The notes beneath the pieces are model-generated. The model ran no database searches, was not told where the DNA came from, and saw only the letters and a program-made list of their open reading frames with translations. DNA of 63,876 bases, filler included, from Hausera hauseri (taxonomy: Eukaryota): assembly GCA_046269625.1 (NCBI GenBank). It is 9 parts of 9 records of this genome, joined end to end, with 100 filler letters (N's around TTAATTAATTAA, not from the genome) between each part and the next. Parts side by side here need not be neighbours in the genome. Positions count along the whole stretch, not along the records: positions 1 to 17,882 come from JBJURY010177749.1; 8 more parts are not named here. One strand, given 5' to 3'. Below are positions 1 to 34,662 of this stretch, piece after piece. The stretch's first letter is position 1. Every line of letters starts with the position of its first letter. Position numbers and translations under genes: made by a program.

Positions 1-184
1 GGTTTCCTCCCACAGTCCAAAGACATGCTACCAGGTTAATTGGAGACACTGAATTGCCCTGTAATGAATGAATGGTTTCCTCCTAGATAGGGAGGGTTGC
101 GGCAGGAAGGGCATCCGGCGTAAAACTTGTGCCAAAACCAACTTGTGGCGACCCCTAATCGGGATTAGCCGCAAGAAGAAGAAG
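1..184 (+). mobile_element. 3' part of a SINE: V-domain end, Meta-like domain and RTE-type (GAA)n tail
   Basis: GGTTTCCTCCCACAGTCCAAAGACATGC (V-SINE core) at 1-28; GGGTTGCGGCAGGAAGGGCATCCGGCGTAAAAC at about 95-127; GTGGCGACCCCTAA...GCCGCAAGAAGAAGAAG tail. Confidence 0.7.
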
Positions 185-1225
185 ACTCCTGTTCTAGAGT
201 CTCTACACTGGATACCAGTTAAATTCCACATTAGCTACAAAATATTTTTGCTAACTTATAAAGCACTAAATGGTCTTGCTCCTCAGTATCTAAGTTCACA
301 AGATGCAGGTCTACTTATAGAACCTAGAATAGAAAAGATCAAAGCTCCTCCACTTTGGAAAAATCTTCCTGCCTCTCTTCGAGATTTGGATACAATCTTA
401 ACGTACAAATCTAGATTAAAAACATATTTATTCACTCAGGCTTTTGATTATGACTTCAAACTAGGAGTGTGTGGATCCAGTCCTGGGCTTCTGGGATCTT
501 GGTGATCTGGTGCTCTCATGTTTTTCAGATTTCCTGGCACCACATGTTTTTTTTGGCTGCCTTCGATTTTTTGCCTCAGGGTTGGGCTGCCCACCCAAAT
601 ATAGACAAAAGTGCAGAGCTTTGGAGGTTCTTGGTCATAGATCCTTATGGTGATCAAGGATGTTGGGTTGCTGTCGTTCTGCTTCGCCGGCTGATTATTT
701 CATGTTGTTATAGCTAGGGGTGTCGATATCTACTCTCCAAAAATGTTCACTTTTATTCATTTTTCTTTGGTTTAACTCCCAGGTGATGTTTCTGATGGTG
801 ACCTGTTCACCGCTCAAGTCTGCACGATTCGACTGACATGCCATCAATGCTGCTCCTGTTCGACGAGATGGGAACCAGGCATGCTTGCTGCAAGACATTT
901 CAAGATCTATACTGTTTCAGAAACTGGACTAAATAATTGGAACACTAAAGTTTCTCCTATTTATTCATTTAATAGATTTCATGCTTGCTTGCATGAACTG
1001 TATAAATCATGTTTATTTAAAATACTCTCCAGTCCACCCAAAGAAGGATGGGCCCCTGCTGAGTCCGGTTCCTCCGGTTCCTGTATTTTCAGGGAGTTTT
1101 TCCTTGCCACAGTCGCCCCTGGCTTGCTCAACAGGGGGTATTTGGTCTGGTGGTCTTAAACTCTGTAAAGCTGCTTTGTGACAATGTCTATTGTAAAAAG
1201 CGCTATACAAATAAATTGACTTGAC
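185..1225 (+). mobile_element. 5'-truncated, decayed L2 LINE (ORF2 C-terminus and 3' UTR)
   Basis: Translation TPVLESLHWIPVKFHISYKIFLLTYKALNGLAPQYL...LWKNLP...KSRLKTYLF is the typical L2 ORF2 end; tail AAAAGCGCTATACAAATAAA(TTGAC)2. Confidence 0.85.
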
Positions 1226-1760
1226 ATGTAGAAGCATGAACACCTTGCTTTTTCCCTTTCATGCCTTTCGTGTTGTCACCATTTTTATAGAGCTGTCTCC
1301 AACAATTTTAAAATGGAATGCCAAGCTCCTTCAACTTGTCTAGGACAAAAGTGGACTAATTAAGTCCACATGAAAAAATTCCAGAACATATTCTATAATG
1401 TCTGGTTGTAGCTGAAACAGACAATTTGCACAACAAATATCTTTTCCTTGTGATTCACATTCGGAGTACAATCAAAAATTTTGGAATATATTTTGCTAAC
1501 TGGATATTTCTCACAATGATTCTGAAAAGATAATCTGAATTAGCTTATTGTTTGTCTCATGACTGAAGTTGTAGTGTGTGTGAACATTCATCATTTATTT
1601 TGGCCTAGATAGCCAAGATTCCCCATTACAGGGTCATACATGTTGCCATAAGCACTACTTCCTTCAGGAAGTTGCCATTGTCTGGCTCATTAAGGTGGAC
1701 AGAAGAGCCCTTAAAAGACACATTTCTTGAAGCCAGAGAGAGTGTAGGTGAGAGTAAGCA
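1223..1760 (-). mobile_element. hAT transposase remnant, copy 1
   Basis: Highly similar to 11876-12380, which is continuous with recognisable hAT coding sequence. Confidence 0.7.
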
Positions 1761-1929
1761 TTTGAGAACATCTTTCCACCTTTTCTTTTATGCCTTTTTA
1801 AATAACAACTCCTTTTGATCTGTTGCCTTTAATTCTTTAGCTGTGTGTCCAGTTCTCTCTACTTACGCACACACTGTGAATGGTCTTGGTTACACTCATG
1901 ACCACTCAATCTGCTTTAATTGTTAGACC

Positions 1930-2178
1930 CATCAGCGTGGCCCTCTGCAGCCAGCTTTATATACTCCATACTTGAAAGCTTAAATGCAAAGCAGAACACA
2001 GCATTGTTCAATGAAGAGTACACCACCCAGAAAAAGCATTTAGCTGCCTACAGAGCTAAAAATGGTGCAGCTACAAGGCAAGCATCAAGGCTTTTCTCTG
2101 TACTTGCACTGAAGTGGTGGAACTTCTGAAATTCACTCTGTATAAGAGCTTCTGCTAAATGCTGAAAATGTAAATGTG
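1930..2178 (+). mobile_element. Decayed L2 3' end
   Basis: RLFSVLALKWWN-like coding remnant and tail TAAGAGCTTCTGCTAAATGCTGAAAATGTAAATGT. Confidence 0.6.
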
Positions 2179-3649
2179 TCTGCACTACACCACTTCAATT
2201 TAATAATTTGTTTCCTTGATTCAGAAAAGATTCATTTCAATCGATTCAGCAAAGCAAATCGATTGATTATAAAACATTTAAACAATTTATAATTCTTTAA
2301 CACATTAACACTGCTTCATTTATAGTTGCTTAAATGTTTACATGAATACACAGAGTTCCTTTAGCTTTGTTTAGTTTGTTTCACAGTTTTATCTCTAATA
2401 GAACATTAAATACATTATCATGTGTTGTGTGTTAAATGTATCACTCAGGTCATAAACAATTCAAACAAAACAGAATATTGCTCTTTAAATCAATTTGAAT
2501 TGATGAAACCTAAAAAAGATTTTAGGAGGTGGAATATTTCTGATTACAATATATTTATTTATATCTATTTAATTGCCTATGACATTTGAAGCGGTTGTGT
2601 GTATAATGCGTTTGGCATCTAGTGGTTCAAAACCACATTATGGTAGCAGAAATCATGTTTCTACCAAGTCACGAATAAAACACCAATCAACCATAGACGA
2701 CGGGACTTGTACATATTTTTTTGATGGCTTAAAGTAAACATTCAAAATCAACATTTTCGCTGATGATTGCTGTCCAAAATTGAACTTTCAGCTTCATTAA
2801 GTTAAATGTGTGCAATCATTTTCAATGATCACCTAGATTTAAATCCAGATCAAATAAAACTAAAGACACATATATGCTCCTAAAAATCCACATTTATGCT
2901 GATGTTGCTGCCAGATGTAGATTTGTAATGCAGTTTTAAAAGAAAAATTCTTTTTGTGGGGACAATCACCTTGTTATAGATGATGTGGTCTGTGGCTGGT
3001 TGAGTTGTTATTGCTCATATAGTTTTTGACTCCGAAACAAATGAATATTTACTGCAGCATGTTTTATTTATTTTCATGTTTAGTGTAATATTACCTGTTT
3101 TTGGAATGTCTATAATCTCTTCTCCACTTGCCACTATTGATTTGAAATTATATTAACAGTCGTTAGCTGTTAGTATGTTGTACAGACAGCTCTCCTTTTA
3201 GCTCTCATATGATCTATTCTACAGCTAAAACTATCTTTCAGTTTTTATGAAAAATGACTTCAGCATTTAGGATTTAGGATTATTTTACTTTTAGGGCATC
3301 TGGTCCTCCCAGTGAGGGTAATGGAGCCACATCATTTTCACCCTTAAGCCAAAAATGCATTTATCACCATAATAATTTGACAGTGTAATTATTAAGTAGA
3401 TAAAAAAAAGTTCTACATGTACGTGTGGGTGTAAATAAGACTGAACTGTGGTTCTTGTATAAGATAAATCATTTGACCCAAGATGGGATTCAATAATTAT
3501 GTAGGAGTTATACAAGTTGTCACTAATTTGCTGGGTTTGTGCCCAGTGTTTTCTAGTCACACCAGAATCACTTTGACTACAGGGATGCATACACAGCGTG
3601 TGTGAGATTAGAGAAAGAACGACAAGAAGCAGAATACCTGCAATAAAAC

Positions 3650-3655
3650 TTTATT
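3650..3655 (-). terminator. Candidate AATAAA poly(A) signal of the minus-strand orphan gene
   Basis: TTTATT on the + strand about 230 bp past the stop codon at 3883. Confidence 0.45.
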
Positions 3656-3882
3656 AAAATTTTAGACATTACATTAATTTAAATCTACTAAATGAACTAC
3701 TTGCCATATATTATCTACTAATATTCTAAATGAAAAAAATACTATTATTAACTATTTACAATGGAGCAGATGTTCAGCTTCCAGATGTTCTCCTGATCTT
3801 ACAGAACTTTGACCACCTCAGTAGGATCTCTACAATGCTCTTCTTGATCTCACTTCAGTGATGTTATCCTTTCAGGAACTTT

Positions 3883-5313
3883 TCACCTCGACCACATTCC
3901 CTCAGATCTTGCCAGCATGGCTTCAATCTCGTCTAGCAATAAATCCACACTGTTTCTCTGGAGGGATGCGGTGCAGATCCCAGTCTCAGCAGCCAGGTGC
4001 CCTTGGTTTGAGGAGCGTTCTTCTTTCTGGTCCAGCATGTCTTCCAGCTCGTCCAGTAACACATCTACACTGTTGATGTCGTAGGTTGCGTCACTGCCCA
4101 AGTGTGCAGAGACCACTTCATCCACCAGTGACATGCCTTCAAGTGATTCACCAGGACGATAGATGTCAAATGTCGCATTAGTGATCTGATCAGCATCCAG
4201 CATCGTCTGCACAGATGAAAGACTTCCTTCATCATCAGACCAAAACAGTGCAATGTCATCCTCACCCTGAGAGAAACCACTACTGCTCTGCTGAAGGTGA
4301 TCCTGAGAGCACCACACTGGTTCCACCACATCAGTCTGGTCCTGATTGATCGTCTCACAGGATGCACTGGAGATCCTGTCTGTCTGGGTTGAATCCAGAT
4401 CTTCCTCTGGAAAAGAGAGACAGCACATGAATAAATGATGTGCTCGTGACAATTTGGGCAGATTCTTATTGGTGTTAGTGTAAAAACCAGCCGAGCTATC
4501 TTTCTCAGGTTTCAGTGATATCTCCTTCACACGGCTCCTCCTAAAACCTGTATGAGAAAAGACACATTCTTATTTTGCAAATGAAATAGTTCACAACAGC
4601 AAACTGATTCAATGAGTGCTTTTTTAAATTGGAATCGATTCAGAGCGCTGTGTGTTTATATATGGTTAAGATTCATCCATGCTGCTTCATTACGGAGTTT
4701 TGTGTAAAGACTCCCTGAATTTAAAAATTAAATCATGATTTAAGCCTTGATAAGCAGCTGCATGAACCAATCAGAGCCAAAAATCAGATTTGGGGCGGAA
4801 TTTTAAAGGTTTCTCTAATAATCCAACGCAATATATGATCATTTGGAGGAAACATGTTTTATTTACGAGAGCAGGTAATTTATTAATTATTATTTTTTAT
4901 TTAAAACATTCTAGTTTACGTTTTTACTGTGAAACTGAATAAACTTGTTAAAGTTGGAAGGAAAATGTGTTTTAATTGTACAAATTTGTCAGAAAAGGAA
5001 ATAATTTTATTTGTGATTTATGATACATCTAAAATAATGTATATTCTGGCTTATTTAATGATCATTTGCCACCTATTTAACAGGACCGGACTTTTGTTTA
5101 CATTTGACGGAGGCAAGCTAGCGGTTAGCACTTAGCTAACGGGGCTCAAAGTTAGACAGCGAGGCTACGCAGAGCGTTACACCGCTCACCGAAACTGAAA
5201 CCCGGGCTGCGGGCAGCAGTCCGTTTCCCTCTGCCTCCTGCGTCTGAGGTCCAGCACTGTTGTCTGTCCAGCACCCTGGTGTGTGTCCGGTGCTTGGTGA
5301 TGTGTTGGCCCAT
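3883..5313 (-). CDS. Spliced gene of unknown function (coding exons 5313-5190 and 4547-3883; possible in-frame 81-nt intron 4487-4407)
   Basis: ATG at 5313 (MGQHITK...); donor G|GTGAGC after 5190; acceptor CATACAG|G at 4547 with matching phase 1 into the 215-aa ORF; second acceptor TCTCTCTTTTCCAG at 4407. Confidence 0.6.
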
Positions 5314-5411
5314 TCTTCAGCTGTTCTTCAAAGTTGAACTTCGTATATCAGCGGTTTTCCTGGAGCTCTTGCGCTTGTGTCCTCTCACCACGACGTCCTC
5401 TTCAGCACTGA

Positions 5412-5423
5412 TGGCTTTACAAT
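5412..5423. repeat. Target-site duplication of the RTE element (element 3' side)
   Basis: TGGCTTTACAAT, identical to 8714-8725. Confidence 0.9.
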
Positions 5424-5452
5424 TGCTTACTTGCTTAACGGCCGTTCCACCC

Positions 5453-8400
5453 TTAGAGGGTATTGGCCAAATCCAAGCTGATTGTTCTCCATTGGCCCCG
5501 ATCATTGGCTAAGGTTTCAAGGTGTTCCAGCCAGGTGGAGTCATAATTTTTTCGGCTCAGGCATAGCGGTTTCATAACAATAGATTCAGCGGCTTTATGG
5601 AAGTATCTCTTGAGGGTTTGTTTGACTCCTCCTTTTGGTCTCTTCCAGTGTGACGGTGTGTCAGCAAGAAGGCTCTGTTTCGGTAATCGATTGTTTTGCA
5701 TTCGCAGTACATGCCCTAACCATCTCCATTGCTTTTGAGTTATGATGCTTGCTATGGAATGGGTTATGCCGCACCTGATTCGTACCATTTCGTTTGATAT
5801 GAAATCAGACCATTTGACTTTAGCAATGCGCCTAAGGCATCTGTGGTCGAAGGCATTCATTCTGTTTAGATCTTGTTTTGTCATGGGCCATGTTTCGGCT
5901 GCATAAGTCAAAGTGGCGCGAACGGTGGCACAGTAGATTCTGGCTTTGGTCTTTATTCGTATGTTTTTCTGTTTCCAAAGTGTATTTAAGGATGTGAAGA
6001 TGGCTGAACCTTTACCTATTCTTATGTTTATTTCAGATTTTAATTCGCCAATTGGTGAAATTTGGCTACCTAAATATGTAAATTTTGAGATTTCTTCCAA
6101 TTCATCGTTGTTGATTTTTAGCTTTTTGTCATTTTGGGTTGGGTCCATGTTTGTTTTGAAGTATTTAGTTTTTGAGCAGTTTAACTTTAGACCAATTTTT
6201 GACGATTCTTTGGCTACTCTATCGATCATTTGTTGCATGTCGTCCATTGTTTCAGCTAGAAGAGCAATATCATCCGCGAAAGTGAGGTCCGTTATTTTGT
6301 TTCCATTGGAGCCAATCTGGCAACCTTCGGGCATATTGTCGAGGGCATTCCTTAACACATAATCTATGGCTACGTTGAAGAGGCTTGGTGACAGGATGCT
6401 TCCTTGGCGGACACCAGTTTTGGTCGTAAAGGCATCACTATACTCTCCATATGCCCTTAGCTTGCAGGTTGTGTTTTGGTATAAGGCTATGATGATACGG
6501 CATATTTTATGTGGTATATTTTCGGCTTCAAGTAGGGTCCAGATAGAGGATCGGTCTATACTGTCAAAGGCTGCTGCGAAATCCAAAAAAGCAACTACTG
6601 TAGGCCTGCGAAACTCATGTCGCTGCTCTAGAGTTTGCCTGAGGGCAAAGATTTGGTCACTGCAGCTTCGGCCTGGACGAAATCCAGCTTGCCCTTCTCT
6701 TATTCGTTTGTCCCTGGCTACTGATATCCTGTTCAGGATTATACGTTCCATGATTTTATAGGCGATACAGAGCAAGGAGATGCCACGATAATTGGAGCAA
6801 AGTTTTGTGTCACCTTTTTTGTGTATGGGTATGATAATGGCAGTTTGCCAGTCTGATGGGATTGATTCTTCGTTCCATATTCTAGCAAATAATCGTTGTA
6901 AGTCAGTGGTTAACTGAGGATTGTCTATCTTGAATAGGTCGGGTGGGATACTATCGAGGCCAGCAGCTCGCCCTTTTTTGAGGCTTTTGATGGATTGTGA
7001 GATTTCAGGTATTGTAGGCGGACCATCATTTATGTGTTCATAATCGTTGTTGGGGTCAGTTGGTGTTAAAGTGATGCGTGATACTGGTGGTTCTTTGTTC
7101 AAGAGTTGTTCAAAATGGGTGGACCAGTGTTTAATCAGATCAGTCGTTTGGGTGATTTTTTGGCCATTTTCATTCAGTAGGGTGTTGCTGACTGGCTTGC
7201 TAAATTTGTTGGCAATTCTATTGACAAGTTGGTAGAGTTTCTTCGAATTCCCGCTATTTTGGGCTTGTTCGAGCTCAGTAGCTTGCTTTAACCAATAGTT
7301 GTCTTTATCTTGCCTTGCCGAAGTCTTGATTTCTTTTGCCAGACTGGATGCTAGCGCATGTTGGTTGTTGTTTCTTGCTGTCTTCCTGGCATTTGCTAGT
7401 GCTATCGTCTCATTACTGAGCCAGCTTGGGGATTGTTTTTTAGCGTAGCCGATTGTGGCCTCGGCCGCTTTAGTAATGCTATTTCTTATAGCTAACCAAT
7501 CATCATTTACATTTTTGAATGTTGCATTATGTTTGTTTGATTCATGGCAGTAGGCATTGGTAAACTGGGCTCTTTTTTCTGGGACATTGAGGAGATTATT
7601 GTCAAATTTTCTGCATACTGGCATAGATTTTTTGAATTTTGGGTTGATTTTTATTTTAGTTGAAACTAATGCATGATCAGTCACTATGTCAATGCCCCAA
7701 TAGGCTCTTGAGTCAACTAGTGTCCTTATCCATCTCTTTCGTATGAATATGTAATCGATTTGGTTACGGGATTTACCATCAGGGCTAACCCAGGTTTGTA
7801 GGTGGCGTCGTTTGTGTTGGAAGTGAGTGTTGGTGGCATAAAGTTGGTGCATAACGGCCAGTTGGGATAGTTTATCACCATTGTTGCATAAGCTTCCAAC
7901 ACTGTAGTGCCCTATATCTGGTTGAATTCCAGGTCTTTGCCCAAGTTGTGCATTGAAGTCACCTGCTAGTATAAGGTAGTCATTTGATGGTACGTGAGTC
8001 AGTTCATCTTCCAGGGCCTCGTAGAAAGCATCTTTAGCTTCTTCTGTAGACGCATTTGTAGGGGCATAGGCCGATATGATGGTGACGTTTGCTGGTGAAG
8101 CTAGTAGGCGTATTTTTGCTAGGCGTTCGTTTATAGGTTTCCATTCAATAATGGATTTATTCAGTTTTTTTGTAATCGCTATTCCAACACCATGTTGGCC
8201 ATTGTGTCCAGATCCATTTGGCCCTGCAATTGGGCCACTGAAGTGTAAGTGATAAAAATCGTTCTGATTTGGGATATTCAGTCGAGTGGAGCCACAATCT
8301 GGCAAGCGTGTTTCCGATAGACAACAGATATCTACATCATTATTGTACAAAGTGAGTGCTAGAAGGCCCTGCTGGCCTGATTGCAAAAGTGTGCGGACAT

Positions 8401-8515
8401 TTAGTGCGCAAATGTTCATTGAGCAATGGTTCAAAAGGTTTGACTTTATAGCATGTATACCGCTTCCCGGGGTAACCGTAGCATTTAAAACTGGGATCTT
8501 TGGTTGTACTTTCAT
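5453..8515 (-). CDS. RTE endonuclease-reverse transcriptase (1020 aa from the first ATG; frame open up to 8632)
   Basis: APE motifs LNVRT, LSETR, YAPT, GDFNA, NQIDY, TDH; RT motifs NYRGISLL, FLDFAAAFDS, GVRQGSILSP, FADD; no stops or frameshifts. Confidence 0.95.
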   Translation of the reverse strand: MKVQPKIPVLNATVTPGSGIHAIKSNLLNHCSMNICALNVRTLLQSGQQGLLALTLYNNDVDICCLSETRLPDCGSTRLNIPNQNDFYHLHFSGPIAGPNGSGHNGQHGVGIAITKKLNKSIIEWKPINERLAKIRLLASPANVTIISAYAPTNASTEEAKDAFYEALEDELTHVPSNDYLILAGDFNAQLGQRPGIQPDIGHYSVGSLCNNGDKLSQLAVMHQLYATNTHFQHKRRHLQTWVSPDGKSRNQIDYIFIRKRWIRTLVDSRAYWGIDIVTDHALVSTKIKINPKFKKSMPVCRKFDNNLLNVPEKRAQFTNAYCHESNKHNATFKNVNDDWLAIRNSITKAAEATIGYAKKQSPSWLSNETIALANARKTARNNNQHALASSLAKEIKTSARQDKDNYWLKQATELEQAQNSGNSKKLYQLVNRIANKFSKPVSNTLLNENGQKITQTTDLIKHWSTHFEQLLNKEPPVSRITLTPTDPNNDYEHINDGPPTIPEISQSIKSLKKGRAAGLDSIPPDLFKIDNPQLTTDLQRLFARIWNEESIPSDWQTAIIIPIHKKGDTKLCSNYRGISLLCIAYKIMERIILNRISVARDKRIREGQAGFRPGRSCSDQIFALRQTLEQRHEFRRPTVVAFLDFAAAFDSIDRSSIWTLLEAENIPHKICRIIIALYQNTTCKLRAYGEYSDAFTTKTGVRQGSILSPSLFNVAIDYVLRNALDNMPEGCQIGSNGNKITDLTFADDIALLAETMDDMQQMIDRVAKESSKIGLKLNCSKTKYFKTNMDPTQNDKKLKINNDELEEISKFTYLGSQISPIGELKSEINIRIGKGSAIFTSLNTLWKQKNIRIKTKARIYCATVRATLTYAAETWPMTKQDLNRMNAFDHRCLRRIAKVKWSDFISNEMVRIRCGITHSIASIITQKQWRWLGHVLRMQNNRLPKQSLLADTPSHWKRPKGGVKQTLKRYFHKAAESIVMKPLCLSRKNYDSTWLEHLETLANDRGQWRTISLDLANTL

Positions 8516-8598
8516 TTTGGATAAGGTAGCTTGATACCGCGAGGGTTCGCCACTCCCAGGGGGTGCAGTTTTATTATCCTGTGTCCACACCCACAGTC

Positions 8599-8711
8599 GA
8601 CAGAGCCTTTTTGCAACAACAGGGGGCCCCACGTGTAGGCCAAGGCTGTCATTTGGAGGTGAGAGGCTATACGATGTACGTTGAGTTGCGCATCACACTC
8701 CCTTGCCCCCC
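8599..8711 (-). ncRNA. Putative HDV-like self-cleaving ribozyme at the RTE 5' end
   Basis: P1 GGGGGGC/GCCCCCU with G1-U wobble; J1/2 hairpin; P2 AGCCUU/AAGGCU; P3/L3 GCC-UACACGU-GGG (one G-G mismatch); J4/2 G-C-AAA; G1 lies 2 nt inside the TSD boundary. Confidence 0.7.
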
Positions 8712-8713
8712 AT

Positions 8714-8725
8714 TGGCTTTACAAT
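8714..8725. repeat. Target-site duplication of the RTE element (element 5' side)
   Basis: TGGCTTTACAAT, identical to 5412-5423. Confidence 0.9.
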
Positions 8726-8737
8726 GAGTTGAGCCTG

Positions 8738-8745
8738 TTTATATA
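8738..8745 (-). promoter_or_regulatory. TATA box of the interrupted minus-strand gene
   Basis: TATATAAA; in the reconstructed empty site it lies about 32-34 nt upstream of an initiator-like CCATCAGT. Confidence 0.6.
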
Positions 8746-9160
8746 GGGTTTCAGTGATGACGTTGCAGGGTTCTTGCTGCAGCAGCTCACCAGAGAGTGC
8801 AGCGTTAATACAGTGTTAAATCAAGCAGTGATTTAAACAGGATTGAAAGGATTTAAAACCTGAATTTAAGGCATATATATATATATATATATTAATCAGC
8901 ATTTTCAATGAAAAGTAAAGATCTAGTTTATATCAACAATCGTCCCATGAGAAAAATTAAAAGTGGTGTGAGTGCACCAAACCCACTTTAAGTAAGATAA
9001 ATAAAAAAAAAAATTAAAGTCCTTATAGAAATGGAAAATTCACCAAAGGCAAATGTTCATTTTTATCATCACTTATCATGGGCAGGGTAATAGTAAGATC
9101 AATTTCTATTGTACAAGATGTCACCATCATCTGTGGTTGGACTTTTGTGTGTTTGAACAG

Positions 9161-9353
9161 GTGGGAGTCCACTTCAGAGCTCAACTCCAGTGAACATCCC
9201 AGGATCCTTCAGCAGCCCCTCCACCTTCGATCCCTCCATGTCTCCTCCAAATCAGAGCTTTCTCCCTTTCCTCGCTTTTTCATTTCAATCCACCCAGCTG
9301 CCACATTCCAGCCAACCGGAGACCAGTTTTTGGGACGTTCTCACAGTTCTTTG
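9161..9353 (+). pseudogene. unk: unkempt-like exon, frameshifted
   Basis: Acceptor GAACAG|; GSPLQSSTPVNIPGS...HSSQPETSF/LGRSHSSL resembles vertebrate UNK GSLLQSSAPVNIPGS...SQSENTFLG..SHGSLG; T-run is one base short. Confidence 0.65.
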
Positions 9354-9395
9354 GTTTGTATTAGGGTTTTGTATTAAGTGTTTGTTATATTTTTT

Positions 9396-9716
9396 GGAGG
9401 CGGCATGGTGGCTTAGTGGGTAGCACTGTCCTGGGTTCGATCCCCGGGTAGGGCGATCTGGGTCTTTTCTGTGTGGAGTTTGCATGTTCTCCCTGTGTCC
9501 GCGTGGGTTTCCTCTGGGTACTCCGGTTTCCTCCCACAGTCCAAAGACATGCTGCCAGGTTATTTGGAGACATTGAATTGTCCTGTAAGTACCTTTCATG
9601 GATTGGCGCACCGTCCAGGGTGTTACCATAAGCCTTGCGCCCGTTGAAATGCAGGGATAGGCTCCAGCACCCCAACCCAACCCTAATTAGGATAAGGGTT
9701 AAAAAGAATGGACGGA
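9396..9716 (+). mobile_element. tRNA-derived V-SINE
   Basis: A box TGGCTTAGTGG, B box GGTTCGATCCC, V domain TGTGTGGAGTTTGCATGTTCTCCC...TCCCACAGTCCAAAGACATGC, ATGGACGGA tail. Confidence 0.85.
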
Positions 9717-10194
9717 TATATTTTTTGTTTATGAGGGTTCTTAAAAAACTTTCTGCACTTTTTCACTTGCTTGAATTCAAAAACATGTAAAACAAAAATT
9801 CCTCTATTTTACATTGTCGTCTTCCATTGTGATGCATTTTTTTCAGCATTATACAATTTTAATACCATAATCAACAATGTTGTCAGTTGAGCAGGTAGCC
9901 ACTGATGCTAACAATGTCTATTTTTATATTTGAAACCACAAGCATTCGCCCCAATCTGGAGCATCAGCCAATCAGCAGAAAGGAGAAATGAATAACACTT
10001 TTGGATTTGCTACTTCAAAACCTTTCACCTCTGTGTACAGGGTATTTCAACATCCGAAGCTGCGTTTTTGTCTACCATTGCTTGGTGTTAAATAATATCA
10101 ACAATATAAATTTTTATTTGTAAATGTAGCTGAATTTATGTTGCTATTCATGTTTCAAAAAGTAGTTTATTATATTGTTCTCAATAATTTTGGC

Positions 10195-10490
10195 GATCCT
10201 TGGTTTAAACCCCAGGTTGGGTGATCCAGGTCTTTTCTGTGTGGAGAGTGCATGTTCTTCCAGATGTTCTTGTGTCCTCCTACGTTCCAAAAAATGCCAC
10301 CAGGATTATTGAAGACACTAAATTGTCCTACAAGTAACTAGACACTGGGATCCATTAACGAGTGCATTGTAGTGCCGATACCAAACTCTGGTAAATAGGA
10401 AGGGTAGTTTCAGAAAGAAAATACATCTGGTATAACTATGCCAAGTTGATAATGCGGACCATGATCTACTGTGGCGATCAACAGAAGTAA
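10195..10490 (+). mobile_element. Degenerate SINE of the same family as 1-184
   Basis: Decayed B box, V domain, Meta-like segment and CTGTGGCGATC tail. Confidence 0.6.
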
Positions 10491-10826
10491 GTATATGGTT
10501 TTTAATCTTTTCAAACGCATGAAAAATTATGTAGCACTATCTCTTAACAGCAAGAAGGTCCTTAGATCAATACCCAGATGAAGCGCTCTAGGTCTGTATA
10601 GAGTTTTATTATATTTATTAGTTTTGTTCTTCAGAAAAGAATCAGCTTATCTTGTTGATGCATCAGTAGCTGTGTTCAAATATCCTTTATTTAAAATTAT
10701 GTTTGAATGAGATTAACAGCAGTACCTGAGAGCATTTTCCTCTTGGCAGCTTTCCAGTAGTAACCAAAGTGTGTAAAACACAGTGTTTCTATTTATAAAC
10801 TAATAATGTTTATGTTCTTTTAATAG

Positions 10827-11065
10827 TTGTGGGCGGTACTAAAGGCTGATGCTGAGGAGGCATGGTTGCTGGGTTTAGAGGCAGAGAGAGCATTCCAGGT
10901 TGACATGGAGGAGCAGGTGTCGGTCACGTGTCCGGAAGAGGTGCTGGATAGTCTGAGAACCCCCTCCTACAACTACACCAGCTTCAGCTCCTATACAAGC
11001 TTCCGCTGAGGTCCATGTGCAGTCAGCAAGCTCAGATCTGCACCAGTCTGCACACTGTGGAACAG
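10827..11065 (+). pseudogene. unk: unkempt-like coiled-coil exon, frameshifted
   Basis: TTTAATAG| and |GTCAGT boundaries; LKADAEEA... and ...LPLRSMCSQQAQICTSLHTVEQ resemble UNK WKKEAEEA and LSLSTLYSLQKQLRAHLEQVDK; 239 nt, one base short of frame. Confidence 0.55.
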
Positions 11066-11102
11066 GTCAGTCCTGCATTCATGCCAACCCACACTTCAGT
11101 TA

Positions 11103-11510
11103 TAGTGCTGTAAAAATTGCCCTCTTTACAGACTTCTTAGGTTTTTGCACATCTGTCACATTAAAATGGTACATATTATCAAATAACTTTGAATAATGAC
11201 TATCAGACAAAGATGACCTGATTGAATACAAAAAATAACTGGCAATGAGTCTTTCACATCTCTATGGAGGAATGTTGGCCCATTCTTCATTACATAATTG
11301 TTTTAATTCAGCCACAGTGGAGGGTTCTTGAGCATGCCTTGTCTGCCTAAGGTCATGCTACAGCATCGCACCCAGATTCAAGTTCTGCTATAGCTTTACG
11401 CCAAATGTAACGGGATGCTCACCTTTCAAAAAGTTCCATTTTGTTTGATCAGGCCACACAATATTTTCCCAAAAGTCTTTATTAAGATGTTTTTATGGTA
11501 AATGTTAAAA
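11103..11510 (-). mobile_element. Tc1-like transposon remnant, internally deleted
   Basis: Decayed TIR-like start TAGTGCTGTAAAAATTGCCC and Tc1 transposase-like pieces (GGAGGAATGTTGGCCCATTCTTC; AAAAGTTCCATTTTGTTTGATCAGGCCAC). Confidence 0.6.
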
Positions 11511-11589
11511 GGACACTTTGGGATTTGCTCGGTGGTCAAAACTACTCAATGTCTCACCCTAAATGGCTTGTCAAACAGATCACTTACAG

Positions 11590-12380
11590 CCTCACTTGCC
11601 TCCAGGAGAGCATCTCTTACCAATTTGTTTGATTCCAGAGAGCTGTTATACTCTTAAACCTGGTCTCCCACCTAATGTCACTTAGTATCAGCTTGACATA
11701 CTTTGTCAAAATGGCCCATTCCTGGGTTGCACCAGCGAATAAATTGAAAAGCTTCTGCAAATACACCAAATGGCCAATGGCATCTTTAGTGGACTTGGAA
11801 TCATCAGCAATGGCAAGATTCATCATGTGAGCTCCACAAGGAACACAAGGAATGCTCTAGGATTTAACTGTAGTAGACATGTAGTATCATGAACACCTTG
11901 CTTTTTCCCTTTCATGTTGGCACCATTGTTATAGATCTGTCTCCAACAATTTTCAAATGGAATTCCAAGCTCCTTCAACTTGTCTAGGACAAAAGTGGAC
12001 TAATTAAGGCCAAATGAATAAATCCCTTAACATATTCTTTATTGTGTGGTTGTAGCTGAAACAGACATTTTGCACTATGGATATCTTTTCCTTGTGATTT
12101 ACAATCGGAGTACAATCAAGAATTTTGGAAAATATTTTGCTAACTGGATATTTCTCACAATGGTATGTAATGATTCTGAAAAGATAATCTGAATTAGTTT
12201 ATTGTGTGTCTCATGAATGAAGTAATAGTGTGTGTGAACATTCATCATTTATTTTGGCCTAGATGGCCAAGATTCTCCAGTACAGGGTCATATATGTTGC
12301 CATAAGCACTACTTCCTTCAAGAAGTTGCCATTGTCTGGCTCATTAAGGTAGACAGAAGAGCCCTTAAAAGACACATTTC
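11590..12380 (-). mobile_element. hAT transposase remnant, copy 2, interrupted by L1
   Basis: VPCGAHMMNLAIAD...KLFNLF...SDIRWETR matches the hAT CxxH and TRW motifs; multiple disablements. Confidence 0.8.
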
Positions 12381-12512
12381 GGGATGGTCACGTGACCCAC
12401 TGGAAAATGGCTGCTTGAGTTTTTGCTCCGCTCCGTTAACTTTTCTTTTTCAGTGCTAGCCTCCTTAAAAATACTTTGAGCACCACTTACCAACTACTAA
12501 ATAAGATTTAAG

Positions 12513-13385
12513 ATGTCAGAGAATCAAAATCTGCAAGAATTTCCGCTGTTTTCAACTTCCCGACCGTCCAGGGGGGCGAAGAAAAAAACGCCCGAACAAC
12601 ACGAGGAACCCCCGCCGCCATCCGCGTCTATGGAGATTCTGTTATCAGAAATTCGCGCGGTTGGTTCTCGTCTTGACACCATTGACGGCCGTCTGGACAC
12701 TCTAACTTCTGGGCTTTCCTCGCTGTGTGCAGCCCTTAAAGACTTAACTGAGAAAGTCACCTCAAATGAGTCCAGGTTAACTGAAGCAGAGAACAGGATC
12801 TCGATCACGGAGGACTCCACAATTGCACACAGCACCCAGTTAGACATGATGGGTAAGAAGCTGGAGCAACTACAGGCTAAAGTTGACGACCTGGAGAACC
12901 GGGGACGGCGAAAGAATATTAAAATCGTCGGTCTCCCTGAGAGAGCGGAGGGCTCTGTGCCCCTCGCCAAGTTTGTACAGGATAACTTGCAGAGATGGCT
13001 CGATCTTCCATCGGACTTCACCCCCGAAATCGAACGAGCTCACAGATCCCTCGCGCCGCCACCATCGAAACAGGGTCCGCCGCGGAGTGTTCTGGTTCGC
13101 TTCCTTCGCTATCCAGATAAAGATACTGTTTTGCGGGCTGCATTGCAGAAACGCAAGGTGATGTATGAAGGAAAACAGCTTCTTTTCTATCAGGATCTGT
13201 CTGTTGAGGTTCTCAGGAAACGACGCGAGTTTGACGAGGTGAGGAAAGAGTTCTCTAATCGTCAGATGTTTCGAGGATTCGCCTATCCTGCAAGACTCCG
13301 GTGCTGTCATAACGGGAAGATCCATCTGTTCTCGTCCATCGAAACAGCCAGGAAATTCATAACTGATATGGATAAGGACAACTGA
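12513..13385 (+). CDS. L1 ORF1p (coiled coil, RRM, CTD)
   Basis: DDLENRGRRKNIKIVGLPE, IERAHR, PRSVLVRF, FYQDLS, YPARL motifs. Confidence 0.95.
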   Translation: MSENQNLQEFPLFSTSRPSRGAKKKTPEQHEEPPPPSASMEILLSEIRAVGSRLDTIDGRLDTLTSGLSSLCAALKDLTEKVTSNESRLTEAENRISITEDSTIAHSTQLDMMGKKLEQLQAKVDDLENRGRRKNIKIVGLPERAEGSVPLAKFVQDNLQRWLDLPSDFTPEIERAHRSLAPPPSKQGPPRSVLVRFLRYPDKDTVLRAALQKRKVMYEGKQLLFYQDLSVEVLRKRREFDEVRKEFSNRQMFRGFAYPARLRCCHNGKIHLFSSIETARKFITDMDKDN

Positions 13386-13838
13386 CTTCTTTGGTGATGC
13401 AACTACATTGGTGCTTATCTTAACTTCTTTATAGACGCTATCAGAGGTAGCCTTCTTTCCAGATCTCTCCTCTGACTATAAGTTGACAGAATCTATACCG
13501 TCTGTTTTTAGACGGCTCTCAGAGAACTGGTTAAGTACTGTTTACGTGTGAAGGTACGGAGTGGTGCTTGTTTTGTTTTACGTTCACTGCACAGCTTATG
13601 CTTAGTGTGGTTTTTTTTTCCTTCTTAGTAGCTCTTTTGCAGCTATTGCTTCAGGTTGACCGTGACCTAGCTGTGTTTGCTGTGTCCCACCGTTTGGGGG
13701 TGGGACTGGGGGAGGGTGGGAATGGGTGTTTGTGTTTTTTTGTGTTTGAAAACTTTAAAATGGTTGCGCTTAAACCTTCAAACTTATTTATGTTGACACT
13801 TTACGTTGCAGTTAAACATTGTTTAACTATTTCTGATA

Positions 13839-16800
13839 ATGAATATGGATGATTCCTTTATGTATATATCTTGGAATGTAAAGGGCCTAGGGCATGTCAT
13901 TAAGAGGAAGAAAATTTTAACTTTTCTCAAAAAGGAGAGAGCATCAGTTGCCATGATTCAAGAAACACATCTAAACGATTCTGAACATCTTAAGCTCAAA
14001 AGGGACTGGGTAGGACAAGTGTATTTTGCATCATGCAACTCAAATCCAAGAAAACGAGGCGTGGCTATATTAATCAATAAACATTTGCCATTCATTTTTG
14101 AAAAACAGATTACTGACCCTGAAGGTAGATATGTCCTAATCTCAGGCTTATTGTATGGACAACATATTACAATGCTAAACATCTATGCACCAAATGAAGA
14201 TTCCCCTAAATTTATGTCTAACCTAATCTTACTATTTAACAATAGTATCCAACATTTGGGTGTTATGGCGGGAGATTTTAACTGTACTCTAGACCAAAAT
14301 TTGGATAAATCCTCTGCTCTCTTAACCAACCCTAACACCTCCTTAGTAGTCAACGAGTTATGCAAAGAATCTGGATTGATTGATATTTGGAGGGAATTAA
14401 ACCCTCAAGTCAAGGACTATACTTTTTATTCCAACCCTCATGGATCATATTCACGCATTGACTACATATTTATACCCAGTAGCTCTATTCATCTCGTAAT
14501 AGACAGCAAAATAGGTCCCATTGTTTTGTCTGACCATGCTCCAGTCCACATGCGCATGAAATTAGGCATTCCAATAACTAAAAACAGGACTTGGAGATTT
14601 AACTCATCCCTGCTTGCCAACTCAGCATTTTGTGATTCTATGCGCCAAAGTATCCGATATTTTTGGGAGGAGAATAAACACTCCCCGGTGTCACCAGCTA
14701 CTCTATGGGATGCAGCCAAGGCCACGCTCAGAGGCGATATCATATCATTTTCTTCGTTAGTTAAAAAGACCCAGATTCAAGAACGTGTGGATCTAGAAGC
14801 AGAAGCCATTCGTTTGGAGCGGCTGCATAAATCTTCCCCCACGCAGTCAAATTGGGAGTTGCTGTGCCAGACGAGGGCTAAACTTAACCTGAATCACACA
14901 AATCATATTAAAAAACTGCTCCTCTTTTCAAAACAGAAATTTTATGAATTTGGTAACAAACCAAGCCGTATGCTGGCACACCAGTTAAGGAAGGAACAAA
15001 ACGACAGAACTATTAAATCTTTAAAAAATGCTGATGGCTCCGTCACGTATGATCCCTCAGTTATAAACAGTTCTTTCCAAAACTTTTACCAATCACTCTA
15101 TAAATCAGAAAACACATCATCAGAGTCAGATATTTCGGCCTTCCTCAATAAAATATCCCTCCCTGCTATACCAGACGAAGACCGGGTGGTTCTGAATGCC
15201 CCTTTCTCCCCTGAAGAGATTTTGCAGGCATTGCAGAATATGCCTTCTAATAAATCTCCTGGTCCAGATGGCTTCCCACCAGAGTTTTTAAAAACTTTTT
15301 GGCCAGAGCTTCACCCAATCCTTTTACCTGTCTTTCACGATCTGCTTGATTACGGTTCAATACCCGAAACCTGGAAAATGGCAACAATTTGTTTAATTCT
15401 TAAAAAGGGTAAAGATCCTGAAGACTGTGCATCCTATCGACCAATAAGCTTGCTAAATACTGACTGTAAAGTTTTTGCTAAGGTTCTTGCACGTAGGTTG
15501 GAAATGGTTCTGCCAAAGTTAGTTAAACCTGATCAAACCGGCTTTGTGAAAATGCGATACGCCTCTGACAATATACGTCGCCTAATAAATGTGGTGGACT
15601 CTGTCAACGCATCTAAACACCCTGCTATTATTGTATCACTTGATGCAGAAAAAGCATTCGATCGTGTTGAATGGGCCTTTCTCTTTGCCACACTGGAGAA
15701 ATTTAACCTAGGACCAAATTTCATTAAACTAGTTCAACTTTTATATGCTGATCCTCGAGCCACAGTCTTAACTAATGGACAATTGTCGCAAGCGTTACAT
15801 ATTAAAAGAGGCACTAGACAAGGATGCCCTCTTTCACCTCTGATCTTTACTCTGATCATTGAACCATTGGCTGAACTTTTAAGGATGGATGCCTCCATCT
15901 CAGGCATTAAGGTAGGAGATGAAGATCATAGAATCTCTCTTTATGCTGATGATGTTTTATTATTCATCTCCAACCCTATCCAGTCACTTCCGGTAATATT
16001 AAGCAATATTGCTCAATACAGCTCACTTTCCGGATATAAAATTAACCTTTCAAAGTCTATGGCCTTACCGCTTAATGTCCCCGCTGACTTCTCAGCATCT
16101 CGGGCATCCTTCTTTGGAGATACATTTCCATTTCATTTGGCCAATGAGGGGTTTGATTACTTAGGCATCTTCCTTTCACCAAATCTTAATAATCTTTTCT
16201 CTAAAAACTATCTGCCTCTTGTGAACAAAATTAAGACTGATCTTGGTGTGTGGTGCTCTCTCCCACTGTCCTTTTTTGGTAGGATAAATGTTTTGAGAAT
16301 GAATGTTCTTCCTCGTCTCCTATATTTATTTCAATCCCTCCCTTGTTATATTTCCAGCTCATTTTTTAAAGACTTAAACCGTCACTTTTCAAAGTTTATC
16401 TGGAATAATAAAAAACCTAGAATCAAAATAATCAACTTACTGAAGCCCAAAGAGAAGGGGGGGCCCGGGGTACCAAATTTGCATCTATATTATTGGGCAG
16501 CTCAGATCAAACACATGCTTAGTTGGTCCACCAACAGAACTGACTCCTTATGGGTTAACACAGAGGCGATGTCCTGTTCCCCTCTTCCCCTTCAATCTCT
16601 ACCATTCATCCACAATTTGAAACAACTGAAAAATGTTTCTGTTTCTTTCACTGTATCCAATACCCTGTCGGCATGGAGGGATGTTAAAAAATATTTAAAG
16701 ATACCTAGATGCCTTTCTCTGCTATCTCCATTTGCTCGTAACCCTGATTTTCCCTCCCAGCTGTATAGCATAGGACTCGCGGACTGGATTAGACGGGGGT

Positions 16801-17636
16801 TAACACATATTTCCTGCTTGTTTTCGGATGGAATCTTGATGTCTTTCTCGCAAATCAGGGAGAAATATAGTTTGCCAAAATCAGACTTTTTTAAATATCT
16901 CCAAATTAGACACTATATCAAGTCTCTTCTGGACAAGGGGAAGCTGCGATTGGACTTGACAGAGGTGGAACATCTTTTCACTAAACAGTGTGACTCAAAA
17001 GGTCTGATTTCTAAGATCTATATTCTGTTATCAGATGAATCTCCCTCCCCCATGACAAGCTTGAGGTGTGTCTGGGAAAAAGACTTGAAATCAGAGTTTG
17101 ACCAAGACCTGTGGGATTCTGTTTGTTCGAATTTGTATCCTAAATGCACCTCAATCAATGTGCATGAACTTAACTTTAAGTTCATATATAGAACCTATTT
17201 TACACCGGTGCGGCTAAACAGAATGTTCCCGGACAGATCTGATCTGTGCTTCAAATGTCAGGCACACAAGGGCACATTTGTTCACTGTTTCTGGACCTGT
17301 GATAGAATAAACTCGTTCTGGAGGGAGGTACATTCTAAAATAGAAGAGCTATTTGAGGTTCAATTCAACATGTCCCTTCTGTTGTACCTGTTAAATGGCC
17401 AATTGGACGCTCATTTCGACTACCAGCTGAAACAGGCCTTTATTTTGCTGGTCCATGTAGCGAAGAAGTGTATCCTGTCGCTTTGGTCCTCTAATCAAGC
17501 CCCCTCATTGAAGCAATGGGTTGCTCAGATCTCAACCCTACTCCCTCTGGAAAAATTATCTTTTGATATGCGGAGGCAATCAGAAAAATTTAGACGGGTC
17601 TGGTCCCCTGCCTTGGAGTACTTTGGGATTATTTAA
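13839..17636 (+). CDS. L1 ORF2p (APE, RT, C-terminal CCHC), intact
   Basis: SWNVKG, IQETH, GDFN, SRIDY, SDH; KSPGPDG, YRPISLLN, LDAEKAFD, GTRQGCPLSP, YADD; CFKC...HCFWTC. Confidence 0.96.
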   Translation: MNMDDSFMYISWNVKGLGHVIKRKKILTFLKKERASVAMIQETHLNDSEHLKLKRDWVGQVYFASCNSNPRKRGVAILINKHLPFIFEKQITDPEGRYVLISGLLYGQHITMLNIYAPNEDSPKFMSNLILLFNNSIQHLGVMAGDFNCTLDQNLDKSSALLTNPNTSLVVNELCKESGLIDIWRELNPQVKDYTFYSNPHGSYSRIDYIFIPSSSIHLVIDSKIGPIVLSDHAPVHMRMKLGIPITKNRTWRFNSSLLANSAFCDSMRQSIRYFWEENKHSPVSPATLWDAAKATLRGDIISFSSLVKKTQIQERVDLEAEAIRLERLHKSSPTQSNWELLCQTRAKLNLNHTNHIKKLLLFSKQKFYEFGNKPSRMLAHQLRKEQNDRTIKSLKNADGSVTYDPSVINSSFQNFYQSLYKSENTSSESDISAFLNKISLPAIPDEDRVVLNAPFSPEEILQALQNMPSNKSPGPDGFPPEFLKTFWPELHPILLPVFHDLLDYGSIPETWKMATICLILKKGKDPEDCASYRPISLLNTDCKVFAKVLARRLEMVLPKLVKPDQTGFVKMRYASDNIRRLINVVDSVNASKHPAIIVSLDAEKAFDRVEWAFLFATLEKFNLGPNFIKLVQLLYADPRATVLTNGQLSQALHIKRGTRQGCPLSPLIFTLIIEPLAELLRMDASISGIKVGDEDHRISLYADDVLLFISNPIQSLPVILSNIAQYSSLSGYKINLSKSMALPLNVPADFSASRASFFGDTFPFHLANEGFDYLGIFLSPNLNNLFSKNYLPLVNKIKTDLGVWCSLPLSFFGRINVLRMNVLPRLLYLFQSLPCYISSSFFKDLNRHFSKFIWNNKKPRIKIINLLKPKEKGGPGVPNLHLYYWAAQIKHMLSWSTNRTDSLWVNTEAMSCSPLPLQSLPFIHNLKQLKNVSVSFTVSNTLSAWRDVKKYLKIPRCLSLLSPFARNPDFPSQLYSIGLADWIRRGLTHISCLFSDGILMSFSQIREKYSLPKSDFFKYLQIRHYIKSLLDKGKLRLDLTEVEHLFTKQCDSKGLISKIYILLSDESPSPMTSLRCVWEKDLKSEFDQDLWDSVCSNLYPKCTSINVHELNFKFIYRTYFTPVRLNRMFPDRSDLCFKCQAHKGTFVHCFWTCDRINSFWREVHSKIEELFEVQFNMSLLLYLLNGQLDAHFDYQLKQAFILLVHVAKKCILSLWSSNQAPSLKQWVAQISTLLPLEKLSFDMRRQSEKFRRVWSPALEYFGII

Positions 17637-17882
17637 CTCCCTTTGTCATTTCACCACTATCATAAAAATCACTTTCTCTTTCCTTCTTCCGTTTATTTCA
17701 CCCATACTCTTTGTTATCCATGTATGTAACTGCCATGTATATACTTTCTATGTGTGTTAAGTGCAACTTCAATAAAGACAAAATTAAAAAAAAAAATGTA
17801 GATAAAAATACTACATGCCGAATGGTACTGTAATTTTAAAAGCATTATTAAACTGACTGTATATATCCAAATATACTCGAAA

Positions 17883-25636: not shown

Positions 25637-26004
25637 TTTTTGTTTTTTTGTTTTTGGGCTGGTTTCTTCACAATCGTGGCATATTTTGGCTGATTGGACG
25701 TGGATTAGAATATCATCGAAGGATGAAGAGTGCTGTGTGACTGGAGGAACACAGTGGAAGCAGCGGGGGGCCTGAAACCTGGCGGTGTCTAACAAAAAGC
25801 CCCTGTCAGTTGAAGTACACTGTGACAATCCTCATTAAGTTCTAGGTGGGCTGTGTTAAGAGTCTAAAACCTTCCCACTCTAAAGACTTACAATCTTTTA
25901 AAAGGTGGTAAGGGCCCGAAGGAGGCATTCTCTAAAAACACGCACACACACGTGTATATTGGTAAAATTAACAAGTGTAATCTAACCCAAACACATAAAA
26001 GAAT

Positions 26005-27477
26005 ATGGGGAACACTGAAAGCAAACAAACAGAATTAAGGGGGGATGCAAAATATATGCAGAAAAAATATCCCGAGACTGTAAAATGTTTAACAGACTGG
26101 AAGACAAAGTATGAGTTTAAAGGGAATCTCTCCCTCCCTGACTGTACTGAATTAGTTCGAAAAATACAACTAAAAGATCGAATTAAAAATAAAAAACAAC
26201 CGAGTGATGATTTGAAACAGGCCAAATTATGGTTAGAAGAAGCTCAAAAGAGAAAAAGGGGGGAGGAGAAGGCCAAAGAAGCGACAGTTGCTGTGGCCCG
26301 TCAAGAAGATAATGATACATGCGTGACACAAGGGCGTGGGCATGATAACGGACCTTCGTCACCTCCCCAACAGAGCGCTACTTCTCAGTCACAGAGTTCA
26401 TTGCCAACTTATTCTCAGGCTTTAAAAAGCCCCTCTCTTAAGAAAGTAGAAGCAACAGCTTCCTTATTACAAAATGCCTCCAACATGTACCCCAACCTAG
26501 ACGAGCTTACAAAAACCGTGATGCACCCAGGTACACCGCTAAATTCTCCTGTAGCTAGCAGAACCAGAAGTAAAATAGAAACTTGGGAAAATTCAGATAC
26601 TTTCCCCATGGTTGAAGTACCAAACCCTAACACAGCAGTTGGCCAGCCCCGCACAATATTGGTATATAGGACTTGGACACTTGAAGATGTTAAAAAGGCT
26701 GTGGAAGGGATCCCACATCCCAAGGCAGACCCGGCTGGATTTGTCTCTGGGATGACTATGTTGCAAACCACTTACTTTCTTAATGGTGTGGAAATGCAGC
26801 AGGCCTTCATGACTAAACTAGGAATAGATTGAGCCAGAGTTCAAGGAACCTGGAATCCCATGACACAGGTACCAAATCCAGTGGCACACCCACATACAGG
26901 GGGGGACCTACAGACTCAGATGACTGGTGTGTTTGACAGAGTTAAAACGATCTTTAAGAAAAGAGCTGACTATACTGCTGTAAATCAAGTTAAACAAAGA
27001 CCCGATGAATCAGTTACTGATTTTATGATAAGACCAGAAGAAGTTTTTAAGCAAAATAGTGGGCTTGTTGATGATAATGATGATTCTGGGCCTTACAGAC
27101 AACAGTTAAAAAATGCCCTCCAGGCCAATGTTAAACCCAGTATCTCTAATTGGGTCGCAAAACATTTTGTTGACCTCCCCACTTGCACTGTAGCACAGTG
27201 GCAAAACTGGGCCACCCATGCAGATAAAATCACTGCAGCTAAAAAGAAAACAGAAACAACTGCCAATACATTCTCAGTTCAAGAAGAAGAGGAAGTGTTC
27301 TTTGTGGGGGGTGGGCCCAGGGGACGAGGCCAGGGGCGACCCAGGGGACGAGGGGGCTTTAGAGGGAGAGGGGGGAAACAGAAAAGGGGAAAACAACTAA
27401 ATCGCTCTGATGAGTGTTGGACTTGTGGACAGACCGGACACTGGGCCAAAGAGTGCACACAAAAAACTCAACAATGA
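26005..27477 (+). pseudogene. gag: ERV gag with one in-frame TGA at 26830
   Basis: MGNTES myristoylation signal, YPNL late-domain-like motif, MHR-like VKQRPDESVTDF, RGG tract, CWTCGQTGHWAKEC knuckle. Confidence 0.9.
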
Positions 27478-31572: not shown

Positions 31573-31819
31573 GGGGTGAAGTCTGACTTCAAAGGGGTTT
31601 TGTCTAATAGGGGCAATTCGTCTCAATGTCAGTGAAGAAATTAGAACCCTCTAATATTTAGTGGAGTGGGTATTGGAGGTGAACCTATTTTTACTGTCGT
31701 TATTGTTTTGGGAAAAATATATATATATATATTGTTTCTAAAAAAAAAAAAAAAAACTTTAACAGAAAATTTCATCTAAGTTTCATTTCAGTTTTCTAAG
31801 TCTTGATTAAGTTTTCATA

Positions 31820-34562: not shown

Positions 34563-34662
34563 NNNNNNNNNNNNNNNNNNNNNNNNNNNNNNNNNNNNNN
34601 NNNNNNTTAATTAATTAANNNNNNNNNNNNNNNNNNNNNNNNNNNNNNNNNNNNNNNNNNNN
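34563..34662. other. Artificial contig linker
   Basis: N44-TTAATTAATTAA-N44. Confidence 0.99.

Follow-up and report, generated by a model that had tools for sequence, protein, structure and literature searches.

The question at this locus is how a retrotransposon of Hausera hauseri (assembly GCA_046269625.1) acquires its 5' end. We analysed a stretch of 63,876 nucleotides (the window), a chain of contigs in which positions 1-17,882 are one contig. A preliminary description had placed an HDV-like ribozyme fold on the minus strand of this stretch, with its predicted cut site at the 5' end of an RTE element. We conclude that positions 8711-8599 are probably an HDV-like double pseudoknot lacking P4, which heads the element and likely cuts immediately before G8711, thereby setting the 5' end. 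The fold itself, the junctions found at 8711-8713, and related elements support this reading.

The element and its insertion

The element and its boundaries comprise the following parts (coordinates are those of the window):

5412-5423, unstranded: target-site duplication, 3'-side copy, 12 bp, at the empty-site joint
5424-5452, minus strand: 3' UTR, 29 nt, with a TAAG-containing short tandem repeat at its end
5453-8515, minus strand: main ORF, 1,020 aa from AUG 8515, encoding an AP-type endonuclease and a reverse transcriptase
8712-8713, minus strand: two additional bases separating G1 from the duplication, either non-templated or due to chance; the identical pair occurs in one other junction
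8714-8725, unstranded: target-site duplication, 5'-side copy, 12 bp

An empty site, in which 5411 is joined to 8714 and 3,302 bases are skipped, was found in three of four public runs (X1, X2, and X6). This joint and the 12-bp duplication set the length of the element at 3,290 bp. The predicted G1 (8711) lies 2 nt from the target duplication, as the preliminary description had stated; the 12-bp duplication and the empty-site joint bear this out. The junction in X1, X2, and X5 is identical, with no variant letters, and reads as one insertion; these runs therefore give no support to target-site specificity.

The insertion lies inside a repeated host unit (3883-5411 and 8726-9300), over which the depth of the X5 contigs is very high. 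The left flank has four other matches, and the match in locus L157 is linked to a frame of 228 aa that falls in no known family. A 16-nt inverted repeat (4841-4856 and 9237-9252) flanks the insertion.

The minus-strand frame is open from 8692 to 5453 and contains the domains PF03372 (AP endonuclease) and PF00078 (reverse transcriptase). RTE elements are described as about 3.2-3.9 kb long, with a single ORF, a short 3' UTR carrying A-rich short repeats, and a target duplication (PMC1291365). The ORF of 1,020 aa agrees with the RTE pattern of a single ORF, about 900-1,070 aa long, that encodes both enzymes, as do the 29-nt 3' UTR with short repeats, the length of 3,290 bp, and the 12-bp duplication. 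The TAAG-containing repeat unit of the tail is 8 nt long, which exceeds the 3-5 nt typical of RTE.

The top protein matches were P0001 and P0002 at 55-56%, and the top named match (P0008, 36%) came from a trematode. In a tree of 44 reverse transcriptase regions (one of 45 rows was dropped for short overlap), the element grouped with P0001 and P0002 (100/98) and then with P0004 (98/95), separate from the remaining families in its genome. Since no named RTE reference is among the rows, the clade label rests on the architecture and on the C-terminal motifs of the ORF, which we take to be of RTE type. Searches of the element's own genome with the DNA of either end, and with the core pattern allowing two mismatches, returned the window copy only, a result that does not equate to rarity. 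A search of prokaryote-genome and viral collections did not recover the DNA of P0001 or P0002. The element is an intact retrotransposon of RTE type and apparently young.

Other mobile elements are present in the window. An L1-type element occupies 12501-17636 (plus strand) with both frames open (ORF1 with PF02994, ORF2 of 1,269 aa). Frames at 25999-33274 (plus strand), split by stops, resemble endogenous retrovirus gag, protease, polymerase, and envelope. Fragments on other contigs (34607-37720, 48178-52127, and 53404-54646) resemble what we take to be Gypsy-type, BEL/Pao-type, and Polinton-type elements.

The predicted HDV-like fold

The predicted parts of the fold, in 5' to 3' order, are:

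8705-8711, minus strand: P1 5' strand; G8711 is G1, with the predicted cut immediately 5' of it
8655-8701, minus strand: P1.2 domain in J1/2, an 8-bp base helix with an interior of about 30 nt, folded with P1 enforced
8642-8650, minus strand: P2 5' strand and 3-bp extension, pair probabilities 0.40-0.99
8628-8641, minus strand: the extra G8641, P3, and L3 (8637-8631), with two C-G pairs and one purine-purine mismatch
8621-8627, minus strand: P1 3' strand
8614-8620, minus strand: J1/4 (G8620 and U8619, the P1.1 partners) and the 5-nt linker replacing P4
8599-8613, minus strand: J4/2 with the candidate catalytic C8613, and the P2 3' strand

The features expected of an HDV-like ribozyme were taken from PMC6326823. 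P1 has 7 bp (8711-8705 with 8627-8621), six of them Watson-Crick and one the wobble G8711·U8621, where 6-7 bp with a first pair of G1·U or G1-C are expected. P2 has 6 bp (8647-8642 with 8609-8604) plus a further 3 bp (8650-8648 with 8601-8599), where at least 5 bp are expected. P1.1, for which 1-2 bp are expected, has two Watson-Crick pairs, C8635-G8620 and A8636-U8619. The equivalents of U20, C24, and G25 in L3 are present as U8637, C8633, and G8632, and J4/2 has the expected C-R-R-A in the form of C8613 followed by three A's, within GCAAA. P1.2 (8701-8698 with 8658-8655 and 8696-8693 with 8662-8659) is seen when P1 is enforced. The elements follow the order of HDV as a complete set, and the positions that the preliminary description had assigned to P1, P1.2, P2, and C8613 were all correct on the minus strand.

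The fold departs from the standard core in two regions. P4 is replaced by 5 nt (8618-8614); its reduction had been recognised before, with a length of about 6 nt that is one too many. Of the three pairs expected to stack on P2, P3 has two (C8639-G8629 and C8638-G8630), with G8640 opposite G8628 and G8641 extra, just as had been described. A P3 mismatch is known in one R2 ribozyme (PMC3774820). The A at the second position of L3 had also been counted as a deviation; A8636 is not a defect, because it stands opposite U8619 and completes P1.1 with a Watson-Crick pair. U:A pairs are found in P1.1 of fast natural HDV-like members (PMC13635239).

An alternative P3 pair, U8642 with 8628 (U·G or U-A) across a two-G bulge, may form. 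We rejected a register with 8641-8637/8629-8625 as P3, since P1 would then shrink to 4-5 bp and the A8628 of runs X8 and X10 disrupts that register. L3 contains an ACGU palindrome at 8634-8631 (minus strand), where the X8/X10 contigs differ.

Significance of the fold and competing structures

We wrote a descriptor after the motif had been seen, one that tolerates a single mismatch in P3 and a single extra base. Scanned over the window on both strands, it gave one match, whose G1 is 8711. When the first 200 nt were dinucleotide-shuffled, any match arose in 4 of 20,000 cases, with none at the 5' end and none equally good. Shuffled pieces of the window yielded 8 matches in 1.26 Mb, again with none equally good. 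The descriptor gives about 0.8 loose matches per window-size stretch.

The covariance-model check proposed in the preliminary description gave no support: an Rfam search of the window at E <= 10 returned four matches, none of them to a ribozyme family (HDV_ribozyme, CPEB3, drz-agam, or twister). Plain folding (z = -0.25) gives the fold no support either. P2 dominates the ensemble computed by a program that excludes pseudoknots, and P1, P1.2, and P3 have probability 0.00 there. They are displaced by a 5-bp hairpin (8641-8637/8629-8625) and by 8659-8655, with which the G run pairs. P1 is present in the lowest-energy fold of a transcript ending at 8621. For the window allele, misfolding is a real risk.

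Junctions and natural variants in public runs

Eleven public runs contained the stretch or part of it, six of them at half or more of its words, and one is possibly the source of the window; no RNA run was among those listed. For 8440-8750, contigs were obtained from three of four runs (X5, X8, and X10) and none from X7; those described here are the displayed ones, 32 further pieces being left aside. Loose ends behind 8711 occur in X5 (one contig, alongside contigs with the window's junction) and in X8 (two contigs, mutually unlike), and loose ends behind 8713 occur in X8 and X10 with one common flank. Together with the window, this gives five junctions that lie no more than 2 nt from G1. Their printed flanks are mutually unlike, and the identical two bases precede G1 in two of the five. 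One X8 contig departs from the element at 8660, and a break at 8707 is present in the main contigs of X8 and X10. The preliminary description had named copies that continue well beyond G1 on the 5' side as evidence that would count against the ribozyme; none was found among the run junctions.

At a joint in X8 and X10 (8693-8707), roughly the first 20 bases of the element stand in tandem at its 5' end. Some X8/X10 contigs are short of 4 bases at 8466 and of 1 base at 8509.

The runs also contain sequence variants of the fold, found in contigs whose depth does not equal copy number. C8624U (minus strand) occurs in shallower contigs and retains its P1 pair as G·U. In the deeper X8 and X10 contigs, 8628 and 8633 are both A (minus strand). 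By inspection, A8628 leaves P3 mismatched (G·A) while it breaks the competing hairpin, and A8633 alters the C24 equivalent. In an inactive sow bug R2 ribozyme, L3 carries a C-to-A change of this kind together with a G-to-A change, losing the L3 G (PMC3774820). Letter counts imply two more substitutions in X8/X10, at 8634 and somewhere in 8635-8663; the second of these might affect P3. No double-sided changes were seen among the run variants, which are separated by a small distance.

Related loci with HDV-like folds

Related loci were fetched by protein likeness, and most of those with upstream DNA gave no convincing descriptor match. The six tabulated, which are the best of those scored, reached 18.8-22.5 with a looser descriptor, compared with 21.9 for the window. 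The score was reached by 0 of 200 shuffles for the window, L036, L050, and L052, by 1 of 200 for L031 and L065, and by 6 of 200 for L027. The extra base is absent from all six, and P3 consists of three Watson-Crick pairs in five of them.

L031 and L114, from the same genome as the window, belong to a multi-copy RTE-like family with a canonical HDV-like fold that includes P4 and a 120-nt J1/2 (G1 at 1402, minus strand). Among 39 other matches to this family, 21 start between -2 and +5 of G1, one starts 8 nt earlier, and the rest start further in. The P1 of L031 differs from that of the window by two double-sided changes, G-C to U-A, and motifs flanking P1.2 and P2 are common to both. L036 (10-178, plus strand) shares with the window the GU of J1/4, the 5-nt linker, and the missing P4, and its P3 is intact. 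It stands at 45% in the reverse transcriptase region, groups with trematode proteins, and matches Rfam drz-agam-1 at 31.6 bits (E 0.0078), below the cut-off of 37. L161 (871-934, plus strand), again from the same genome, scores 47.2 bits on drz-agam-1, above the cut-off.

HDV-like folds also lie upstream of the endonuclease-reverse transcriptase ORF in L050, L052, and L065. L004, L008, L022, and L029 form a second RTE-like group that has a conserved 5' UTR and low descriptor scores; this 5' UTR may contain an HDV-like variant with another L3.

Comparison with known systems

The principle of a retrotransposon headed by a ribozyme has reportedly been in print since 2009-2011, with Webb in 2009 and Ruminski in 2011. 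HDV-like ribozymes are described at the 5' ends of the non-LTR retrotransposons RTE, R2, R4, Ingi/L1Tc, and Baggins (PMC6765202, PMC5786205). In these, as in the window, G1 lies at the element's 5' end before an endonuclease-reverse transcriptase ORF; the fold predicted here differs in lacking P4, in its A-U second P1.1 pair, and in the P2/P3 mismatch with an extra G. A ribozyme from mosquito, drz-Agam-2-1, resembles it in having P1.2 in J1/2, short linkers, and an extended P2, although the mosquito P2 has 12 bp, against 6 plus 3 bp with a bulge in the window, where P1.2 is short. P1.2 with the extended P2 is described as quickening cleavage of drz-Agam-2-1 (PMC4908430).

The CPEB3 ribozyme has in common with the window a 7-nt L3, the G and U of J1/4, the G1·U wobble, and ACGU in L3. 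The two L3 loops (U20-U26 in CPEB3) are the same at six of seven places, differing at position 2, in line with the resemblance that the preliminary description had noted. P1.1 of CPEB3 consists of C-G and U·U, the second pair being A-U here; CPEB3 differs also in possessing P4, and in residing in a gene intron rather than a mobile element; its ribozymes dimerise in crystals through the ACGU palindrome of L3 (bioRxiv 10.1101/2022.09.22.508989).

Loss of P4 has precedents. Minimal HDV-like and theta ribozymes (PMC10879173) and silkmoth R2 ribozymes (PMC3774820) lack it, and P4 is described as dispensable in minimal ribozymes (PMC10879173, PMC6326823) as well as in silkmoth R2 (PMC3774820). Theta ribozymes are phage-borne and adjacent to tRNAs (PMC10879173), and the silkmoth ribozymes head R2 in rDNA (PMC3774820). 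The window fold, by contrast, has a P1.2 domain and heads an element with an AP endonuclease. Its context is not that of theta ribozymes, whose cleavage site is at a tRNA 3' end: the genome is eukaryotic, and what G1 adjoins is the target duplication of a retrotransposon.

Among retrotransposons, the schistosome elements SR2 and SR3/Perere-3 are similar in having about 3.2-3.9 kb, one long ORF, a TAAG-type tail, and 10-12-bp duplications (PMC1291365, PMC8501958). This likeness is by description only, and Perere-3 has a twister ribozyme where the window has an HDV-like fold (PMC8501958). No description of this element was found in the literature searched, which concerned HDV-like ribozymes with RTE or fish and lay outside most subscription journals, Repbase, and supplements. 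The ribozyme-headed RTE arrangement is already known; the P4-less core with a loose P2/P3 junction is particular to the window.

What sets the 5' end

Two other readings of the fold have to be weighed against a ribozyme that sets the 5' end. That it arose by chance in a G/C-rich 5' UTR is very improbable. The folding z of -0.25, the missing Rfam match, the writing of the descriptor after the motif, and the rate of loose matches per window-size stretch (about 0.8) are what such a chance fold would lead one to expect, but no equally good match arose in 1.26 Mb of shuffled sequence, none of the 20,000 shuffles matched at the 5' end, G1 coincides with the junction position, and the layout is common to related elements.

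It is unlikely that the fold derives from a ribozyme and is now slow or dead, with the 5' end produced by an internal promoter or by the reverse transcriptase stopping at the G run. The P2/P3 purine mismatch with its extra G and the competing hairpin point in this direction, as does the L3 change (A8633) in the deeper X8/X10 contigs. The 5' end of L1Tc is both promoter and ribozyme (PMC3383444, PMC3185411), and extra G's before G1 in the X8 loose-end consensus could reflect copying of a cap. All other core positions are nevertheless retained, and the P1 variant C8624U still pairs; moreover, the ORF is intact, and X5 has a further junction at 8711 with exactly the sequence of the window. We lean, with some reservation, towards the window allele being measurably active. 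As for the claim that the cut site is the RTE 5' end, the position of the fold at that end holds, given the junctions at 8711-8713 and the related elements; the cut itself stays a prediction.

If the ribozyme does set the 5' end, the cycle would follow that of the known family. Read-through transcription would yield a longer RNA spanning the element, and self-cleavage before G8711, with Mg2+ and C8613 as general acid, would release the element RNA with a 5'-OH; the general-acid C and Mg2+ belong to the cleavage chemistry described for HDV-like ribozymes (PMC13635239, PMC6326823). The element's endonuclease-reverse transcriptase would then copy this RNA by target-primed reverse transcription, and new copies would gain a 12-bp duplication along with 0-2 extra bases. 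The 5' junctions of R2 elements whose RNA is cut at the element's own 5' end also carry 0-2 added bases (PMC3774820). Retained on the RNA, the fold would shield an uncapped molecule and aid ribosome loading.

Translation of the ORF

One further feature overlaps the fold:

8512-8652, minus strand: upstream ORF (uORF) of 46 codons, with its AUG in the linker before P2 and its stop overlapping the main AUG as AUGA

The preliminary description had noted that the ORF stays open through the 3' half of the ribozyme and had considered this compatible with non-AUG initiation. The open frame is there: it extends 59 codons upstream of AUG 8515, and 1,770 of 20,000 shuffles are equally open. Non-AUG initiation is unneeded for the window copy, because AUG 8515 is in frame and stands 37 codons ahead of the endonuclease motif. 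A variant at 8585 in X8 and X10 closes the frame upstream of 8515 (codon by inspection). Direct use of AUG 8515 is the most likely start of translation.

The uORF begins inside the fold, at AUG 8652, and ends at 8514-8512. Ribosomes terminating there might reinitiate on the main ORF at AUGA, instead of loading directly at 8515 or starting at a non-AUG codon; we regard this as possible but doubtful. In its favour, the uORF stop overlaps the main AUG, and a Met lies 28-37 codons before the endonuclease motif in 15 of 26 frames, all 15 of which have AUGA. The RTE-1 element of C. elegans has a possible first ORF of 43 aa overlapping the main ORF (PMC1291365), and SART1 and viruses use stop-start coupling (PMC10275272). 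Against reinitiation, an upstream AUG is present in the closing frame of just 7 of the 15, giving lengths of 4 to 46 codons; the 15 frames come from related loci, and AUGA may merely mirror a second residue that is conserved. In L011, L035, and L052 no Met precedes the motif, which also counts against it and makes a non-AUG start possible for some relatives. A literature search by title or abstract start found no report of RTE reinitiation.

Rather unlikely, in our judgement, is the combined arrangement in which a P4-less, CPEB3-like ribozyme doubles as coding sequence, with the uORF running through the catalytic core and ribosomes handed over to the ORF at AUGA. If true, the AUGA overlap motif common to many RTE-like frames would link the ribozyme uORF with the retrotransposon ORF.

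Implications

The locus adds an RTE-type element whose 5' end is, by prediction, likely ribozyme-made. Because its natural alleles differ in the active-site loop, the element offers a compact way to test to what extent the HDV core withstands losing P4 and having a loose P2/P3 junction. Gene insertion already makes use of RTE elements and ribozyme 5' modules (PMC13708176), and the overlap with the uORF offers a direct handle on the translation of uncapped retrotransposon RNAs.
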